NCBI GenBank assembly: GCA_013166775.1
Contig: JABLTJ010000020.1
Location: 1-62,988, forward strand
Origin: Promethearchaeati archaeon
GTDB lineage: Archaea > Asgardarchaeota > Heimdallarchaeia > Heimdallarchaeales > Heimdallarchaeaceae
DNA: 62,988 bases
Direction of reading: 5' to 3'
In this document: positions 33,389 through 54,323 of the stretch, one piece after another
Layout: each line of letters opens with the position of its first letter
Numbering within the stretch: the first letter of the stretch is position 1
Translations under genes and position numbers: made by a program
Notes under the pieces: model-generated
The model's input: only the letters and a program-made list of their open reading frames with translations
Database searches by the model: none
Told to the model about the DNA's origin: nothing

Positions 33389-33628
33389 AATACCATTTTT
33401 TATAGTTTTACATATTCAAAAAGCTTTTCGTTCAACTATGGAAACACGTATTATTCACGTATTATTTTCGTGTGTCTATAAAACATGTTTTTTAGTTAAA
33501 TATCTCGAAATGGCAATATAATTACGTTTCTTATAAAAAAAGGCAAATAGCGAAAATCGAAAAAATTAAGTAAAAAATCTTGGCTGATTCATGCAGAAAT
33601 TTTCAGCGAAAGAATAAAATAAGACAAT

Positions 33629-34420
33629 ATGAAATATAGTGCAGTGATTATAATGGGTACATACAAAGACCTAGTTGGGAAGAAAGTCGTAATTACTGGA
33701 GGTGCAAGTGGGATAGGATTATCAACTGCTAAACGTTTTATTGATGAAGGTGCTAAGGTTGTAATTATTGATTGGAATGAAGAAGAGTTGAATAAAGTTC
33801 TCTCTAGTATTCCTGAACTCAAGGGTGGAATCCATGCCGATGTGAGTAATCCCGAGCAAATTAAAACTGCATTCAAGAAAATAGATGAAGTTTTAGGAAG
33901 TATTGATATTCTAATTTCCAATGCAGGTATAAGTTTTCGTAATCCGTTTTTAGAAATTGATTATGAACAATGGTCCAAAGTTCTCCGAGTTAATCTAGAT
34001 GGAATGTTCTTATGTGCAAAAGAAACAATATTAAGAATGCAAAAACAATCATCTGGAGTTGTTTTATTAACTGCATCCAATAATGGAATGGAGGGTCGTC
34101 CATTTTATACAGATTATAATAGCTCAAAAGCTGGTGTCATACTTCTTGCTAAAACATTAGCTTTAGAATTTGCTCCTTGGTTAAGAGTAAATGCTATCTG
34201 CCCAGGTTATGTTCTTACACCTATGCAAAAAGCAGAATATACACCCGAGAAGTTAGAAATACTTAATTCAAAAATACCTTTGAAACGTCATGCCAAACCA
34301 GAAGAAGTTGCTGGTCTATTTGCGTTTCTTGCGTCTTCTGAAGCAGCTTATATTACAGGGCAAGCTATCGCTATTGACGGGGGAGAAACAGCTGGTCCAT
34401 ATACACCAATGGATGAATAA
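33629..34420 (+). CDS. Short-chain dehydrogenase/reductase
   Basis: TGGASGIG, NAG, YNSSK, RVNAICPG; start may be 33653. Confidence 0.93.
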   Translation: MKYSAVIIMGTYKDLVGKKVVITGGASGIGLSTAKRFIDEGAKVVIIDWNEEELNKVLSSIPELKGGIHADVSNPEQIKTAFKKIDEVLGSIDILISNAGISFRNPFLEIDYEQWSKVLRVNLDGMFLCAKETILRMQKQSSGVVLLTASNNGMEGRPFYTDYNSSKAGVILLAKTLALEFAPWLRVNAICPGYVLTPMQKAEYTPEKLEILNSKIPLKRHAKPEEVAGLFAFLASSEAAYITGQAIAIDGGETAGPYTPMDE

Positions 34421-34445
34421 ATAGAAAAATTGGAGAAGAAATTTT

Positions 34446-35237
34446 ATGGAATCAAAATATAAGCAAGTTCTGGATCTCATTTCTTTAGAAGGAAAAATAG
34501 CAATAGTTACAGGAGCTGCATCAGGTATTGGTCTAGCAACAACAAAGCTGTTAGCTGAAATGGGTGCTACTGTTGTTTTGATTGATATTAATGAATCCAA
34601 GGGAAAAGAGGTAGCTGAGCAAATTAAGGAAGAAAAAGGACAAGCAGAGTTTTATTTATGCGATGTTACTTCTGATTCTGAATGTGAAAAAACAGTAAAC
34701 GCAATTTACGAAAAGTTTGGAAAAATTGATATATTGTTCAATAATGCAGGCGTGATGCGACGAAAGAATGTTGTTGACTTAGAAGAAAAAGATTGGGATC
34801 TAATCATTGATGTTAATCTTAAATCAATATACTTACTGTCTAAACATGTTATTCCTATCATGATTAAAAGAGGAGGGGGGAATATCATTAACAATGGATC
34901 AGGTTGGGGCATTAAAGGAGGAGCTAAAGCTGTTGCTTACTGTGCAGCTAAGGGGGGTGTTGTGAATATGACAAGGGCAATGGCAATAGATCACGGAAAA
35001 GATGGCATTCGTGTCAATTGTGTTTGTCCAGGTGATGTTGACACTCCACTTTTGAGAGGGGAGGCAAAGCAACTAGACGTTGATGAAGAAGAGTTCATGG
35101 AAGAAGCTGCAAATCGACCACTCAATCGAGTAGGTAAACCTCTAGATGTAGCTCGTGCTGTTCTTTATCTCGCTAGTGATCTTTCAAGCTGGGTAACTGG
35201 TACTTCCATAATTGTTGATGGTGGGGGTCTTGCTTAG
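34446..35237 (+). CDS. Short-chain dehydrogenase/reductase
   Basis: TGAASGIG, NNAG, YCAAK, RVNCVCPGDVDT. Confidence 0.93.
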   Translation: MESKYKQVLDLISLEGKIAIVTGAASGIGLATTKLLAEMGATVVLIDINESKGKEVAEQIKEEKGQAEFYLCDVTSDSECEKTVNAIYEKFGKIDILFNNAGVMRRKNVVDLEEKDWDLIIDVNLKSIYLLSKHVIPIMIKRGGGNIINNGSGWGIKGGAKAVAYCAAKGGVVNMTRAMAIDHGKDGIRVNCVCPGDVDTPLLRGEAKQLDVDEEEFMEEAANRPLNRVGKPLDVARAVLYLASDLSSWVTGTSIIVDGGGLA

Positions 35238-35283
35238 ATTATGAATTAATATTTCATATAGAATTTTGGAAGAGGCATATTTA

Positions 35284-36696
35284 ATGAGCAAAAAAAAGAA
35301 AATAATCCATCCTTACATTCCGAACTCTGTTCCGGAAATAAAAGCAAAAATGTTAGAAGAGATTGGTGTAAAGAATATAGAATCACTTTATGAAGATATT
35401 CCAGAAAGCCTAAGATTCAAAGAGGAACTGAATTTACCTGAACCCTTTCTTTCCGAATATGCTTTGAAAAGACATGTGGAACAGATTCTGTCAAAGAATC
35501 AAACATGTCAAGAAAATCTTAGTTTTCTAGGTGGAGATTGTTGGCAACATTATGTTCCTGCAATATGTGATGAAATCAACCAACGTTCTGAATTCTTAAC
35601 TGCATATGCCGGAGAACCTTATGAAGATCATGGTAGATTTCAAACCCTTTTCGAATATGCTAGTATGATGGGAGAGCTTCTAGATATGGATGTGGTAAAT
35701 GTACCAACGTATGACTGGGGTCAAGCTGCTAGTACTTCTATAAGAATGGCAGGTAGAATCACAGGTCGTACCGAGATACTGATTTCAGAAACCATATCTC
35801 CAGATAGGCTTTCAATAATCAAAAATTACTGTAAACCAACTATCAAAATTAATACAGTGAAGTATGATCCGAAGACAGGAAAACTTAATCTTGAAGATTT
35901 AGAAGAGAAAATATCATCAAAAACAGCAGGTATCTACTTCGAAAATCCTTCATACTTAGGTTGTATTGAAGATCAAGGCAAAATTATTTCTGATATAGCA
36001 CATTCCCAAGGTGCTTTAAGTCTCGTAGGAATAGATCCAATTTCATTAGGCATATTAGTTCCTCCAAGCAATTACGGCGCAGACATTGTTTGTGGAGATA
36101 TTCAAGCCTTAGGTATGCACATGCAATTTGGTGGTGGACTTGCAGGTTTTATAGCTACAAGAGATGAAGAACGTTTTGTAATGGAATATCCTTCTAGACT
36201 TTTTGGAATTACAAAAACTACTGTAGAAGGAGAACATGGGTTTAGTGATGTCACTTATAATCGAACATCTTTTCATGATAGAATTGAAGGAAAGGAATTT
36301 GTAGGAACTGCATCGGCTTTATGGGGCATTACTGCAGGAGTTTACTTGGCATTGGCAGGTCCTCAAGGAATGCAAGAATTGGGTCAAGTAATTGTGCAAA
36401 AATCTCAATATGCTGTGAAAAGGTTATCTAAGATAAATGGAGTAAAAATACCCTTTGAACAATCTTCATACTTCAAAGAGGTAGTTGTAGATTTCAATGA
36501 CGCTGGTAAATCGGTCAAAGAGATAAACAAGGTTTTACTTGAAAAGAATATTTTTGGTGGAAAAGATATTTCCAACGAGTTTCCTGAATTAGGAAATTGT
36601 GCAGTCTATTGTATAACAGAGATTCATTCCAAAGAGGACATTGATAGACTTACCCATACCTTAGAGGAATACTTGGTTAAGGAGGAGCTACAATGA
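35284..36696 (+). CDS. gcvPA: Glycine dehydrogenase (decarboxylating) subunit 1-like, divergent
   Basis: HPYIP, FLGG...HYVPA, EFLTAY, ADIVCGD.Q.LG..M.FGG; ORF-track start is 35266. Confidence 0.85.
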   Translation: MSKKKKIIHPYIPNSVPEIKAKMLEEIGVKNIESLYEDIPESLRFKEELNLPEPFLSEYALKRHVEQILSKNQTCQENLSFLGGDCWQHYVPAICDEINQRSEFLTAYAGEPYEDHGRFQTLFEYASMMGELLDMDVVNVPTYDWGQAASTSIRMAGRITGRTEILISETISPDRLSIIKNYCKPTIKINTVKYDPKTGKLNLEDLEEKISSKTAGIYFENPSYLGCIEDQGKIISDIAHSQGALSLVGIDPISLGILVPPSNYGADIVCGDIQALGMHMQFGGGLAGFIATRDEERFVMEYPSRLFGITKTTVEGEHGFSDVTYNRTSFHDRIEGKEFVGTASALWGITAGVYLALAGPQGMQELGQVIVQKSQYAVKRLSKINGVKIPFEQSSYFKEVVVDFNDAGKSVKEINKVLLEKNIFGGKDISNEFPELGNCAVYCITEIHSKEDIDRLTHTLEEYLVKEELQ

Positions 36697-38243
36697 ATAA
36701 GAAGACCAAAGTAAGAAACTTCCATCAAGCAAAATGGGATGAGCCAGTAATTTATGAACTAAGTAACAAAGGAGAAAGGGGAATTCTATTTCCGGAAATT
36801 GAGAAAGAGATTGAGGAAATTATTGGTGATGGAATATCTAGACTTCCTGAAAACATGATAAGAAAACAACCACCTAATCTACCAGAGCTTTCTCAAATGC
36901 GAGTCCTTAAACACTATCTGCGACTATCCCAACAAACTCTTGGAGCTGATTTGAACGTTGATATTGGTCAAGGAACATGTACAATGAAATATAGTCCTAA
37001 AATAAACGAAGAATTTGCAAAATCTCCAAAGGTGACAGAACTTCATCCATCGCAAGACGAAAGAACTGTTCAAGGGATATTAGAAATAATCTACAATTTG
37101 GATTTATTTCTCAGAGAGATATCAGGATTGGATAAGTTTACACTTCAACCTGGGGGTGGTAGTCAAGCAATATTTGCAATGGCATCTATTATTCATGCCT
37201 TCCATGAATCTAACGGTGATTCAGAAAAAAGGGATGAGATAATTTCAACAATGTTTTCTCATCCATCAGATGCTGCTGCACCCACAGTAAAAGGTTACAA
37301 AGTTATCAATATCTATCCAAATGAAGATGGGTTACCAGATGTTGAAGCACTAAAAAAAGCTGTCTCCAATAGAACAGCAGGATTATTAATTACTAATCCA
37401 GAAGATACAGGAATCTTTAATCCTAAGATAAAAGAATTTACTCAAATTGTTCACGATGCCGGAGGTATCTGTGGTTATGACCAAGCAAATGCTAATGGTA
37501 TTCTGGGAATTACTAGAGCGAAAGAAGCTGATTTTGATCTTTGTTTCTTTAATCTACATAAAACCTTTTCTTCTCCCCACGGTTGTGGTGGTCCAGCTAC
37601 AGGAGCCCTTGGTGTAACTAAAGAACTCATAAAATTTCTACCCGTACCTTTAGTTGAATATGATAATGAAAAATTTTATTTTAATTATGATGTACCCAAG
37701 AGCATAGGTAAAGTAAGAGCTTTTTATGGAGTAATCCCAGCAATTCTGAAAGCATATTCTTGGATTATGAGTTTAGGTAGCGAAGGATTAAAAGAAGTAT
37801 CTCAAATTGCTGTTCTCAATAATAATTATCTCCTAAAGAAAATATTGGAAATACGGGGAGCAAATGCTCCATATGCTAGAGGGAGGCATCGAATCGAACA
37901 AGTTCGTTATAGCTGGAATAAACTTTACGAGGATACAGGTGTGACAACGGAGGACGTTACTTGTCGTATGGTTGATTTTGGTTTTCACATGTGGTCTAGC
38001 CACCACCCATTTATTGTCCCCCAACCTTTTACTCTTGAACCAACTGAATCCTACTCTAAAGCTGAACTAGATGAATATATTGCTGGATTAAAGAAAGTTG
38101 TTGAAGAAGCATACGATAATCCAGAAATAGTTAAGAATGCACCCCACAGAAGCGTTGTACATAAACTGAAAACGGATACATTAGATGACCCAGAGAGATG
38201 GGCTATTACTTGGCGAGCATATTTGAAGAAAAATAAAAAATAA
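36693..38243 (+). CDS. gcvPB: Glycine dehydrogenase (decarboxylating) subunit 2-like, divergent
   Basis: GTCTMKYSPKINE, NLHKTFSSPHGCGGP (PLP Lys), EPTES; ATGA overlap. Confidence 0.87.
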   Translation: MNKKTKVRNFHQAKWDEPVIYELSNKGERGILFPEIEKEIEEIIGDGISRLPENMIRKQPPNLPELSQMRVLKHYLRLSQQTLGADLNVDIGQGTCTMKYSPKINEEFAKSPKVTELHPSQDERTVQGILEIIYNLDLFLREISGLDKFTLQPGGGSQAIFAMASIIHAFHESNGDSEKRDEIISTMFSHPSDAAAPTVKGYKVINIYPNEDGLPDVEALKKAVSNRTAGLLITNPEDTGIFNPKIKEFTQIVHDAGGICGYDQANANGILGITRAKEADFDLCFFNLHKTFSSPHGCGGPATGALGVTKELIKFLPVPLVEYDNEKFYFNYDVPKSIGKVRAFYGVIPAILKAYSWIMSLGSEGLKEVSQIAVLNNNYLLKKILEIRGANAPYARGRHRIEQVRYSWNKLYEDTGVTTEDVTCRMVDFGFHMWSSHHPFIVPQPFTLEPTESYSKAELDEYIAGLKKVVEEAYDNPEIVKNAPHRSVVHKLKTDTLDDPERWAITWRAYLKKNKK

Positions 38244-38266
38244 TAACTGCACAAAGAGGAATAAAT

Positions 38267-39382
38267 ATGAAAAGAATAGGTTTAATAGTTAATCCTATTG
38301 CTGGAATGGGAGGCAAAGTTGGACTCAAAGGAACAGATGGTTCAGCTATTTTAACAAAAGCAAAATGTATGGGGGCAGAACCAGAATCATCAAAACGTGC
38401 AGTAAAAACATTAGAAAGAATTGTTTCTCTTAAAGATGAAATCGAGTTAATTACATATCCAAGTGAAATGGGTGAAAATGCAGCTAAACAATGTGGTTTT
38501 GTTCCTAAAGTAATTGGAACAATAAGAGAAGGAAGGACTACTAGTGACGATACTCAACAAGCAGCCAAAGATTTATGTAAACATAAAATTGATCTTCTGC
38601 TTTTCGCTGGAGGTGATGGAACAGCGAGAGACATTTACACATCGATAGGGGATGAACTTATTGTATTAGGGATTCCAACGGGTGTTAAAATGCATTCTGC
38701 AGTTTTTGCAAGTAATCCAATGAGAGCTGGAGATTTAGCGTTGTTATATCTTCAAGGAAAGGTAAAAGAAGTAAAAGAAGTTGAGGTTATGGATATAGAT
38801 GAGGAAGCATATAGAACAGGAGCAGTTTCCGCAGAATTATATGGTTACCTAAAAATCCCTTTTGAGAGAAGATATGTTAGAGGAATGAAAGCAGGAAGCT
38901 CACCAGATGAAAAATATGCTCAAGAAGCAATTGCTCAAGAAATTATAGATAATATGGAAGAGGATTGTTTCTATATCATTGGACCTGGTACAACACCTAG
39001 ATCAATCATGAAAAAATTGAAACTTGATAATACATTGCTAGGCGTAGATCTCATTTATGGTAAAGAACTCATAGAAAAAGATCTTAACGAAAAAAAACTA
39101 CTAAAGCATATTAAGGATAATAATGTAAAGTTGATTATAACTCCTATTGGAGGACAAGGTTTCTTATTTGGAAGAGGCAACCAACAGTTGAGCCCAGATG
39201 TGATTAAGGAAATAGGAGTAGACAATATCATTGTCATTGCTACAGTTCAAAAGATTAATTCACTAAATGGTCAACCATTTCTCGTAGATACCGGTGATAG
39301 AGAACTGGATGATTCCTTGAGTGGTCATGTTATTGTAGTAACTGGATATCGTGAAAAGATAGTATACAGAATAGATTCGTGA
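38267..39382 (+). CDS. ATP-NAD kinase-like / AcoX-related protein
   Basis: IVNPIAGMGG.VGLKGTD, FAGGDGTARD, GIPTGVKMHS, GGQGFLFGRGNQQ. Confidence 0.85.
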   Translation: MKRIGLIVNPIAGMGGKVGLKGTDGSAILTKAKCMGAEPESSKRAVKTLERIVSLKDEIELITYPSEMGENAAKQCGFVPKVIGTIREGRTTSDDTQQAAKDLCKHKIDLLLFAGGDGTARDIYTSIGDELIVLGIPTGVKMHSAVFASNPMRAGDLALLYLQGKVKEVKEVEVMDIDEEAYRTGAVSAELYGYLKIPFERRYVRGMKAGSSPDEKYAQEAIAQEIIDNMEEDCFYIIGPGTTPRSIMKKLKLDNTLLGVDLIYGKELIEKDLNEKKLLKHIKDNNVKLIITPIGGQGFLFGRGNQQLSPDVIKEIGVDNIIVIATVQKINSLNGQPFLVDTGDRELDDSLSGHVIVVTGYREKIVYRIDS

Positions 39383-39515
39383 AAAAATCATTATATTTGA
39401 GTAAAAAAAAGGGAAAAACATAGAAAAAACACGTTTACAAGCCTCAAAATACCAAATATCTGTGTCTCAAATGATTTTATGAGTTTATATATTAATCTCT
39501 GGTTAATATAATAGA

Positions 39516-40466
39516 ATGTCCCGTTATGCGACTTTGCTATTGTTATTAAAACACATGGGATACATTAACGGGAGAGTCCAGTTTCAAAAATTAACCTTTC
39601 TTTTGGAAAAAAATTATCACATTAACACCGAGTATGATTTTATTCCCTTCAAGTTTGGTCCATATTGTCAAGCAGTTCAGGAGGACATTCAGCATTTAAT
39701 CAACTATGGATATATCGAACACGAAGAAGTGGAAAAAACAGGTGGAGAATTACTTCATCGTTATCAGATTACAGAACATGGTGAGCAATATCTCTTAGAA
39801 AATGATTTTGGAGAGATATATGACCAAGTAATTCAAGATTTGTGCTATGATTTCAAAAATTATAGTATTAGACAGCTTGTTGAATACGTTTACGAAAACT
39901 ATCCAGAATATATAATTCACTCTGAGGTCAGAAGTCAATATTATCACCCTAAACCTAAACAAGAAGATTTTACATCTGCGGATAAGCTTCTTGATAGAAA
40001 ACCCATCATCACCCCATCCTTTGTCAAGTGGTTGGATGAAGAGATTAAAATCACAACAAAGAGATTGGAAGTTTCTGAAGTGCCAAATGAGCATAAAGCT
40101 GATGAGATGGAATTAGACGAGTTAGTCTCAGAAATGCTTGATATTGCATATGAAGATATTGCTACCAAAGCCCAAGAAATTTCAACTAAAATTATGTTAG
40201 AAGATTACAGTGAATCTGGAGATATTAATAATAAAATCTATTTTATACTTGAAATTCTTGAAAATCTACTTGGAGTGCTTGCGGAAAAGGATATTATTGG
40301 AATATATACAGAATTTGCAAACACGAAAACCAATATACAAATGCTTGATGAGTTAATAGCGCTTCATCGAACTTCTCTAAAATCCGATCTAGTCAGATTT
40401 TTGTTTGAATTCATAGAGGATGTAGGCTTTTTCTTGGATAGTATAGATAGAATAATCTCACTATAG
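39516..40466 (+). CDS. DUF4065/SocA(Panacea)/YwgA-like N-terminal domain plus acidic helical C-terminal domain
   Basis: GRVQFQKLTFLL...YDF.PFKFGPY...YQITEHG...LVEYVYENYPEY. Confidence 0.65.
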   Translation: MSRYATLLLLLKHMGYINGRVQFQKLTFLLEKNYHINTEYDFIPFKFGPYCQAVQEDIQHLINYGYIEHEEVEKTGGELLHRYQITEHGEQYLLENDFGEIYDQVIQDLCYDFKNYSIRQLVEYVYENYPEYIIHSEVRSQYYHPKPKQEDFTSADKLLDRKPIITPSFVKWLDEEIKITTKRLEVSEVPNEHKADEMELDELVSEMLDIAYEDIATKAQEISTKIMLEDYSESGDINNKIYFILEILENLLGVLAEKDIIGIYTEFANTKTNIQMLDELIALHRTSLKSDLVRFLFEFIEDVGFFLDSIDRIISL

Positions 40467-52951: not shown

Positions 52952-53476
52952 TCATGATAATTTTTTCTTAACAAATAACCGTGTTGTAGGGCTCCCACAT
53001 TCTATACATTTATTTTGTTTTGTTTTGTATTTTTGTCCACAGACGGTACATTTCCAAAAATATCTTCTTGCTGTTCTAATTTTAAATGAATATGATTTGA
53101 TGGGTATCTCGAGATAAAAACAGACATTCTGGATTGCATTATCATCGCTTACAACAGTAGAATTTGGAAAATCTAATGCGATTGCTATAACTTGGAGATC
53201 AGTTTCAGATAGACTAACAACATCACACGTTTTTTCTGCCATTGATTCAACTTTCTCAATAGACTTTGAAGTAGGTATTGAGAAAATCAACCTATTATCT
53301 GCCTTTAAAGTCTCAAAAACTGCTTCTGCTTGAAATGATTGTATCTCATTTCTAATGATTTCAGGAAAAACTAATGTTGTATTTTCGTCAGAAAAATCTT
53401 CCTTAGATATTACATGAATTATAGCAGTAGAATCGATAATTAGATATTTCTGCTCTTTTGAATCCTTTCTATTCAT
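52952..53476 (-). CDS. nob1: Nob1 family PIN endonuclease with Zn ribbon
   Basis: IDSTAII, LSETD, SDDNAIQNV, CTVC/CIECG. Confidence 0.88.
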   Translation of the reverse strand: MNRKDSKEQKYLIIDSTAIIHVISKEDFSDENTTLVFPEIIRNEIQSFQAEAVFETLKADNRLIFSIPTSKSIEKVESMAEKTCDVVSLSETDLQVIAIALDFPNSTVVSDDNAIQNVCFYLEIPIKSYSFKIRTARRYFWKCTVCGQKYKTKQNKCIECGSPTTRLFVKKKLS

Positions 53477-54323
53477 CTATATCATCAGGATTAAATCGTA
53501 GTAATTTTTCTCTTACTCGAGATACATAGTTTTCTGAAAATCTTACAAAACCAATAGATTCATTTGACTTATCCACTTTTATAGATTCTTTATAACCAAG
53601 ACTATAGTAAGATTGTCCATCTATGACAACTTTACCTGCTCTATACTTGCTTAGATTTTTTACAATGATTTTAGCTGTTGATGGAACTACGATGGGAATT
53701 ACTCGTTTTGAGAAAGGACAAATAGGTACTAAAGTGAAAGCATCAACTTGAGGCATTATTAAAGAACCGCCTGCAGATAGTGAATAAGCACTAGATCCTA
53801 CGCAACTAGCAATTATTAATCCATCACCATGCAAAGTATAAAGAAACTTATCATTCACTTCGATTCTTAGAAGAATCATTTGCCCTATTTTATCTGAAGT
53901 CACTATGACGTCATTTGCTGCTGAGATTGTTGGATAAGTTTTTGTAGACACTGCTAATGCACTGTTGGTTTCTATGAAATATTCTTTCTTCTCGAGTTTC
54001 TCTATAGCGCTCTCGAACTCGTCAGGAGTAATCTCTGTTAAAAAACCAACCCGTCCACAGTTAACACCAAGAATCGGTACATTCTTCCAATTAGCAAATG
54101 TTTTTAATATTGTTCCATCCCCCCCGAATACAAAAATAAAATCAACTGTATCATCTAGACATACCTTGTCAGCATCATCCACGTCCTTTGATAGAAGAAA
54201 ATCTAAAAACACGTTAAAATTCCTTTCTTTTAATTTATGATAAGCGTCGATAGCTAATCTTTTTGCATCCTTATTGCTTGAACTTCTTATTAGAATACAT
54301 GATTCTTTTATTGTGGAGGGCAT
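53469..54323 (-). CDS. nadK: NAD(+) kinase
   Basis: GGDGTIL, G.VGFL, ND, GDGLII, GSSAYSLSAGG. Confidence 0.93.
   Translation of the reverse strand: MPSTIKESCILIRSSSNKDAKRLAIDAYHKLKERNFNVFLDFLLSKDVDDADKVCLDDTVDFIFVFGGDGTILKTFANWKNVPILGVNCGRVGFLTEITPDEFESAIEKLEKKEYFIETNSALAVSTKTYPTISAANDVIVTSDKIGQMILLRIEVNDKFLYTLHGDGLIIASCVGSSAYSLSAGGSLIMPQVDAFTLVPICPFSKRVIPIVVPSTAKIIVKNLSKYRAGKVVIDGQSYYSLGYKESIKVDKSNESIGFVRFSENYVSRVREKLLRFNPDDIDE

Follow-up and report, generated by a model that had tools for sequence, protein, structure and literature searches.

What is a second P-protein for, in an archaeon that already has a canonical one? The question is raised by a 62,988-nucleotide (nt) stretch of DNA from a Promethearchaeati archaeon of the family Heimdallarchaeaceae (assembly GCA_013166775.1, contig JABLTJ010000020.1), hereafter the window. 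Positions 33629-39382 hold five co-directional open reading frames, tightly packed. Two encode proteins that resemble the PA and PB subunits of glycine decarboxylase, the P-protein of the glycine cleavage system, and the others encode two short-chain dehydrogenases/reductases (SDRs) and a protein with a NAD-kinase-like fold. An initial annotation, made from the sequence alone, had described a tight five-gene operon of this kind, and the operon lies where it was placed. The motifs then quoted (TAYAGEPYEDHG, GQGTCTMKYSP, SHPSDAAA and NLHKTFSSPHGCGGP) are also found in the translations. The answer favoured here, with a rough probability of 0.6, is that the operon belongs to a distinct and uncharacterised family of two-subunit glycine decarboxylase paralogues, called P-like below, which would supply a catabolic module with its pyridoxal phosphate (PLP) step, the substrate being some alpha-amino acid other than glycine.

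A second P-protein pair in one genome

The first link to be established is between the operon and the rest of the genome (assembly of 3.85 Mb, 88.7% complete). Another contig, C27, carries a canonical gcvH-gcvPA-gcvPB cluster and, about 9 kb from it, gcvT. Identity between the window subunits and these canonical copies is 36% for PA and 38% for PB. The initial annotation had called the P-protein pair divergent, and it is indeed a second pair that exists in addition to the canonical one. The operon is thus confirmed to encode a P-like paralogue and not the housekeeping glycine decarboxylase. Both subunits are nevertheless recognised by the models for their canonical counterparts. The GcvPA-like subunit (P0001; 35266-36696, plus strand) scores 496 bits on NCBIfam NF001696 against a cutoff of 364. 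The GcvPB-like, PLP-binding subunit (P0002; 36693-38243, plus strand), whose gene overlaps the previous one by 4 nt, scores 580 bits on NF003346 against a cutoff of 441. The GcvPA-like gene has a TTG start as listed and an ATG six codons downstream.

The absence of gcvH and gcvT from the vicinity had also been claimed, and it holds for the whole window contig. In a profile search the genome's copies were found only on C27, C56 and C97. No lipoamide dehydrogenase match reaches the cutoff anywhere in the genome; the best scores 144 bits, and the second best (100 bits) is a related flavoprotein near the canonical cluster. The copies on C56 and C97 are two further GcvH paralogues, located elsewhere than the P-like operon. 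The one on C56 (L005:1456-1935) has Glu in place of the lipoyl Lys (IDSIEET versus the usual ESVKA context) and a long acidic C-terminal tail. The third paralogue, on C97 (L006:1420-3266), keeps the Lys, and its gene has a 4-nt overlap with a gene for an FAD-binding oxidase, which suggests a separate lipoyl-protein system.

A distinct clade in archaea and bacteria

Is the window pair an isolated oddity or a member of a family? PA and PB sequences were placed in a single tree in which each half roots the other. The tree contained 85 PB and 74 PA sequences of the window type plus four plasmid-borne relatives, found in cultured bacteria, and a canonical sample of 31 PB and 28 PA sequences taken only from the same genomes as the P-like copies. 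The P-like sequences are monophyletic, with support of 1.0 (PB) and 0.99 (PA), and are sister to the canonical copies. Such a phylogeny had been proposed as one check on the idea of a divergent enzyme, which would have failed with a sole GcvP that groups with canonical enzymes. Instead, the pair lies outside the canonical clade in a genome that has both.

The census of genomes gives the same picture. In 50 cassette-bearing genomes the scores on the GcvPB model are bimodal, with canonical copies at 642-758 bits and P-like copies at 557-593 bits. Canonical and P-like copies coexist in about 46 of the 50. Of the rest, G002 and G008 are artefacts of contig ends, and the one clear exception is a closed Heimdall chromosome (G020, described below). 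One genome, G005, has two P-like copies. The family is also well conserved. The 120 best matches to the PB-like subunit are 76-96% identical to it, and the closest relatives, at 96%, are labelled Heimdallarchaeota. A genome scan returned 287 relatives and 80 loci at 70-96% identity. Hosts of the PB-like subunit include Heimdall, Hod, Hermod, Loki/Promethearchaeota and Thor archaea together with Aminicenantes, KSB1, Aerophobetes and other bacteria. When 1.8 billion representatives were searched, about 15-20 full-length sub-families were found at 43-68% identity, below which scores grade into canonical proteins; a match at 42% identity is already accompanied by SHMT and gcvT. One contig named as Zixibacteria (DATKYH010000069.1; L008 and L009) carries genes for Arf/Ras/Roc GTPases and a longin-like gene beside the cassette; it is probably of Asgard origin and was placed in a bacterial bin by mistake.

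The initial annotation regarded the operon as probably acquired horizontally. This idea needs to be divided by age. Archaeal sequences of the window type form two groups, each beside a single bacterial sequence and both nested among bacterial branches, a pattern that fits an old transfer between bacteria and Asgard archaea. A recent gain is another matter. The locus, from the PAP2 gene to the pyruvate phosphate dikinase gene, is syntenic in 15 other loci from Heimdall-labelled genomes, which indicates vertical inheritance within the Heimdall lineage. The G+C content of the operon (0.36, versus about 0.33 for the window) is unremarkable. A recent genomic island was therefore considered and rejected, whereas exchange between the domains as an old event stands.

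A rebuilt active site

The strongest clue to function comes from the residues that distinguish the two clades. Active-site residues were mapped from a published analysis (PMC7259800) and from alignments made here. The PLP Lys (NLHKTF), the ring-stacking His (SHP) and the N1-binding Asp (YDQAN) of PB are kept in the 85 aligned clade members. In contrast, 21 positions in PA and 39 in PB are conserved within both clades but with differing residues, and these are located in the classic P-protein motifs. The earlier impression that the substrate-side motifs differ is borne out, because it is here that the comparison of clades places the changes. In PA, YTPYQPExSQG becomes Y-A-G-(deletion)-E-P-Y-E-D-H-G-R, and T-R-E-Q-H-I-R-R-E-(R/K)-A-T-S-N-I-C-T-N becomes R-T-S-F-x-x-R-x-x-G-K-E-F-(V/I)-G-T. 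In PB, PLGSCTMK is changed to GQGTCTMK, SAHGTNPA to FSHPSDAA, NPNTLG to NPEDTG, YYDGAN to GYDQAN and PHGGGGPG to PHGCGGPA, and the C-terminal domain has new invariant Trp, His and Arg residues. In other words, each canonical substrate-side or tunnel motif has been swapped for another motif that is invariant in the clade.

Some of these positions can be related to the human enzyme. Y161 and Y164 of human GLDC are active-site residues (PMC7259800). The two Tyr of YTPYQ align with them, and one of the two is deleted in the P-like clade. R373 and K376 of the human enzyme have been modelled as salt bridges to the H-protein (PMC7259800). The matching positions in the REQHIRR.K stretch are variable in the clade (D/E/V and E/K/Q, respectively). 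Changes common to the whole P-like family include G116 and D121 in PA and P191, D238, R405 and W434 in PB; other changes are specific to the window type. At the position of R405, canonical enzymes have Val, whereas all P-like sequences examined have Arg.

As far as alignments can tell, the active site is rebuilt and not decayed. What might it have been rebuilt for? Loss of the Tyr, together with changes of Thr to Ala and Pro to Gly, would open room beside the C-alpha. A pocket for a polar side chain may be lined by the acidic, basic and aromatic residues that are new in the clade.

Partners of the P-like pair

Genes that stay with the P-like pair were identified by clustering the neighbours in 84 fetched loci and the window (85 in total). 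Only two kinds recur broadly. Of the 85 loci, 68 have at least one SDR of the SDR2 family and 56 have the kinase-fold gene adjacent to the P-like pair. The SDR, PA, PB and kinase-like genes remain together across Asgard archaea and bacteria, although their order is shuffled in some phyla. Conversely, there is no gene for GcvH, GcvT or lipoamide dehydrogenase (Lpd) within 10 kb of a P-like locus in any of the 50 genomes. This is unlike the canonical PB genes, most of which are within 6 kb of a gcvH.

The two SDRs of the window are both encoded on the plus strand. SDR1 (33629-34420) has the motifs TGGASGIG and YNSSK, and SDR2 (34446-35237) has TGAASGIG and YCAAK. Each has the TGxxxGxG dinucleotide motif and catalytic YxxxK of a classical SDR, with an Asp of the NAD type after beta-strand 2 (in IIDWN and LIDIN, respectively). 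Because both carry this Asp, the module is likely to run in the oxidative direction. SDR1 matches Pfam adh_short (1.4e-54) and an NCBIfam glucose-1-dehydrogenase subfamily (232 bits versus a cutoff of 215), and its orthologues are found in the same cassette of other genomes. The best solved relative of SDR2, which also matches adh_short (9e-63), is the dihydroanticapsin 7-dehydrogenase BacC (1.8e-56).

The third partner (P0003; 38267-39382, plus strand) has the fold of NAD kinase (NADK) and diacylglycerol kinase (DAGK). It matches the N- and C-terminal NAD_kinase domains of Pfam (PF01513, 1.9e-19; PF20143, 5.1e-19) and has no NCBIfam match at all, thus none to the NadK equivalog models. Four motifs (NPxAGMGG, FAGGDGT, GIPxGVK and TPIGGQG..GRGNQ) are at least 85% conserved in 128 homologues, and within the FAGGDGT motif the F and GGDGTA are at least 98% conserved. 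This conservation argues for a working nucleotide-binding site, probably one for phosphotransfer. The AlphaFold model has a mean predicted local distance difference test score (pLDDT) of 76. Its N-terminal domain resembles Pseudomonas aeruginosa NADK (7qvs, Z 9.0), DgkB (2qvl, Z 8.8) and SphK1 (4l02, Z 8.1), but these Z scores are middling, stand among generic Rossmann-like folds and concern the N-terminal domain only. A Foldseek search of the model against the PDB gave no match at E <= 0.001, and the C-terminal half has no clear structural match. Predictions of a complex between the PA-like and kinase-like proteins scored 0.00, 0.43 and 0.00 against a mark of 0.32, which weighs neither for nor against binding.

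The initial annotation had noted a separate NAD kinase at 53469. A NadK-type gene is indeed present there (53469-54323, minus strand), with 206 bits on the NAD(+) kinase models, which is under the equivalog cutoff. Its product and the operon's kinase-fold protein share only the GGDGT stretch. It had also been suggested that the kinase-fold protein might replace the T-protein, and nothing was found to suggest such a replacement. Where the kinase-like gene is not adjacent to the P-like pair it is usually elsewhere in the genome. In the plasmid records examined, homologues away from a P-like pair have aminotransferases as neighbours. One example is a Peptoclostridium acidaminophilum plasmid (L124:7001-9077), on which the gene for a homologue (42% identity) runs into the beginning of a gene for a class I/II PLP aminotransferase, which gives the kinase-like family PLP partners of two kinds.

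Competing explanations

The favoured explanation, a P-like family devoted to an amino acid other than glycine, can be put as a sequence of steps. The amino acid, polar and probably hydroxylated, would be bound by a P-like alpha2beta2 enzyme as an external aldimine and decarboxylated at the C-alpha. Hydroxyl or aldehyde groups, whether on the substrate or on the product, would be oxidised by the two NAD-type SDRs. The kinase-fold protein might phosphorylate a hydroxyl of a pathway intermediate, or it might serve as an accessory subunit. Confidence is not the same for all parts of this scheme. The substrate is likely to be something other than glycine, and decarboxylation has probably been retained. 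The fate of the decarboxylated intermediate is harder to predict. Chemistry that is independent of the H-protein, either plain decarboxylation or a decarboxylation-dependent transamination as in dialkylglycine decarboxylase, has about an even chance, and transfer to the housekeeping lipoyl H-protein is plausible but somewhat doubtful.

Several observations weigh against the favoured explanation. Both subunits exceed the NCBI equivalog cutoffs for GcvPA and GcvPB, so the sequence leaves glycine activity possible. A closed Heimdall chromosome (G020; CP070760.1, L132) has gcvT and gcvH, yet only the P-like pair. The neighbours vary by lineage, with GH2, GH29 and GH31 glycosidases in some and M20 hydrolases in others, and no substrate can be named. 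Nor is the kinase-like gene obligatory, since one closed genome has only a 71-residue remnant of it and a search of a second closed genome did not find it. The remnant (G028:C1:1279945-1280157) is on a closed Desulfobacterales chromosome, directly downstream of the P-like PB gene, and encodes the first 71 residues only. Finally, a literature search returned no experiment or paper on the P-like family.

Perhaps, then, the pair is simply a redundant or differently regulated glycine decarboxylase isozyme that serves the normal glycine cleavage system. The model scores and the closed chromosome just mentioned are the reasons to retain this idea. However, it sits badly with a separate clade in which canonical invariant residues have been swapped for another invariant set, with the coexistence of a canonical copy in most of the genomes, and with linkage to SDRs and a kinase-like gene instead of gcvH or gcvT. 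It is very unlikely. A different proposal, made in the initial annotation, is a lipoate-dependent cleavage. The P-like enzyme would decarboxylate a non-glycine amino acid and pass what is left of it, an aminoalkyl group, to the housekeeping lipoyl H-protein. The adduct would be resolved to an aldehyde and ammonia, and the SDRs would process the aldehyde. That the whole P-protein architecture and the PLP residues are kept agrees with this, as does a parallel with AcoX-type proteins, which accompany the E1 component of acetoin dehydrogenase, another lipoyl-reducing enzyme. All 50 cassette-bearing genomes encode at least one GcvH, but GcvH is so common that its presence discriminates nothing. What argues against lipoate dependence is the want of any glycine cleavage partner near the P-like loci and the location of the genome's two extra GcvH paralogues elsewhere, one of them without the lipoyl Lys. 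The basic residues at which the H-protein docks in the human model are also variable or acidic in the clade (PMC7259800). As a complete account, lipoate-dependent cleavage is unlikely.

What if the kinase-fold protein acts first? In this hypothetical scenario its substrate is a hydroxy-amino acid, and the resulting phospho-ester is handed to the P-like enzyme for decarboxylation or for elimination of phosphate, by the same logic as PduX with CobD or hydroxylysine kinase with its phospho-lyase. The conserved GGDGT and NPxAGMGG motifs would be expected of such a kinase, the kinase-like gene directly adjoins PA/PB in distant lineages, its family abuts another PLP enzyme in P. acidaminophilum, and R405 of PB could bind phosphate. 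However, no kinase of the NADK/DAGK fold is known to act on amino acids, and half of the modelled protein lacks a clear structural match. Moreover, there are P-like loci without the kinase-like gene (Bacillus sp. F19 and the P0248 and P0255 contigs), besides the two closed genomes in which it is a remnant or was not found. A kinase-first route is therefore considered improbable, a little more so than lipoate-dependent cleavage. A bolder version of the favoured explanation deserves mention. The P-like pair and the kinase-fold protein might together be a new kind of PLP enzyme system, in which the tunnel for the lipoyl arm would serve instead to take up a long polar side chain or the kinase-fold partner. 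Without need of the H-protein, such a system would oxidatively decarboxylate or cleave an amino acid that is hydroxylated, derived from an amino sugar or conjugated in some other way. The idea is speculative and unlikely.

The operon and its surroundings

The five genes are separated by 25, 28, -4 (an ATGA overlap) and 23 nt. On either side of the operon are genes for archaeal uS7 and uL16, a PAP2 phosphatase, a 316-residue protein and pyruvate phosphate dikinase. The 316-residue protein (39516-40466, plus strand) follows the kinase-like gene after a gap of 133 nt and may or may not be part of the system. At 15 Heimdall loci it occupies the syntenic place downstream of the cassette, with 82-96% identity, and among the loci fetched it was found in no other lineage. 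It matches no Pfam or NCBIfam family, but residues 51-122 have a weak match to a MarR-type (winged-helix) domain, and it may be a local regulator. A tandem direct repeat is present at 33440-33480, within the 240-nt region upstream of SDR1, and consists of CACGTATTATT, then CACGTATTATTTT followed by CGTGTG. A similar word, ACACGT, occurs after the kinase-like gene near 39428-39436. The upstream repeat may be an operator for a local regulator.

Relatives in cultured organisms

A tblastn search of plasmid records located the P-like family in cultured organisms, and the kinase-like gene is adjacent to the P-like genes in seven such records from cultured bacteria. In Rhodococcus qingshengii the order is LysR, SDR, APC permease, SDR, kinase-like, PA, PB, AMP-binding and ArgE/DapE. 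The kinase-like gene adjoins PA on pRHL1 of R. jostii RHA1, and Paracoccus aminophilus also has a plasmid-borne P-like pair with the kinase-like gene. The cassette is accompanied by zinc-dependent alcohol dehydrogenases in Sphingomonas psychrotolerans, and by an APC permease, an SDR, an acyl-CoA synthetase and a primary-amine oxidase in Gemmobacter fulvus. Bacillus sp. F19, in which PA is 63% identical, has a sigma-54 regulator, SDR, PA, PB, SDR, M20, an aminotransferase and a KdgT-type permease. In Natronosalvus halobius the genes are M20, PA and PB. These homologues in cultured hosts are new here, and because of them the family can be tested by ordinary genetics and enzymology.

Can the neighbours name the substrate? 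Some bacterial loci carry genes for GH29 alpha-L-fucosidase, GH2 beta-galactosidase or GH31 enzymes. Among the metagenomic sub-families, one has an SDF transporter with an Asp/Glu racemase and others have M20 hydrolases. In all, M20 amidohydrolases occur in five contexts of relatives, and aminotransferases and acyl-CoA synthetases are also among the neighbours. The transporters, M20 amidohydrolases, racemase and aminotransferases point to catabolism of an amino acid or a conjugated amino acid. However, an attempt to go further and name the substrate was dropped, because glycosidases, M20 enzymes, transporters, the KdgT-type permease, the racemase and the amine oxidase fit no single compound. 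A 2-amino-2-deoxy-aldonate (an amino-sugar acid) may be offered as an unranked guess.

Implications

The label given to P-like genes in databases is "aminomethyl-transferring glycine dehydrogenase". As a consequence, when the metabolism of Asgard archaea, Aminicenantes, KSB1, Desulfobacterales and others is reconstructed, they are credited with a second glycine cleavage system, which is probably something else. The high conservation of the family and its exchange between domains among sediment heterotrophs suggest an abundant, unrecognised substrate in the turnover of necromass or glycoconjugates. Through this family the AcoX-type kinase-fold proteins, so far unexplained, become connected with PLP enzymes, and if the notion of a new PLP enzyme system were true it would give the AcoX-type family its first biochemical role. 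R. jostii RHA1, R. qingshengii, Bacillus sp. F19, P. aminophilus and S. psychrotolerans are tractable hosts for such work. Also new here are the bimodal score census of 50 genomes, the reciprocally rooted tree, the separation of family-wide from type-specific residues and the contrast in gcvH linkage.

Comparison with known systems

Two known enzymes provide precedents for the chemistry. Dialkylglycine decarboxylase, a fold-type-I PLP enzyme, decarboxylates a substituted glycine without a lipoyl acceptor. CobD (L-threonine-O-3-phosphate decarboxylase) acts on a phospho-amino acid made by the kinase PduX. These families are unrelated to P-like, and the likeness is in logic only.

For the kinase-fold protein there are two comparisons to make. 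Its N-terminal domain aligns with NadK, DgkB and sphingosine kinase, and GGDGT is present. However, it is about 90 residues longer, and comparison with the NadK-like protein of the same genome shows no significant similarity. With AcoX it shares the pair of Pfam NAD_kinase domains and the database name 'ATP-NAD kinase family', and both are encoded beside a large cofactor-dependent decarboxylating enzyme. This resemblance is one of shared Pfam domains. The partner of AcoX is a thiamine diphosphate-dependent E1, whereas that of the kinase-fold protein is the PLP-dependent P-like enzyme, and the latter is not in an acoXABC acetoin dehydrogenase operon. The function of AcoX is still unknown (PMC10107126).

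The closest known system is the glycine decarboxylase of Thermus thermophilus (1WYT; GcvPA/GcvPB, EC 1.4.4.2). The P-like pair matches it in two-subunit layout, lengths and fold family (E 1e-64 for PA with chain A and 1.1e-92 for PB with chain B), keeps the PLP Lys, His and Asp, and passes the NCBIfam cutoffs. Nevertheless, YTPYQ, REQHIRR..ATSNICT, PLGSCTMK, SAHGTNPA, NPNTLG, YYDGAN and PHGGGGPG are all rewritten in the P-like pair, which forms a separate clade and is linked never to gcvH or gcvT, but to SDRs and a kinase-fold gene.

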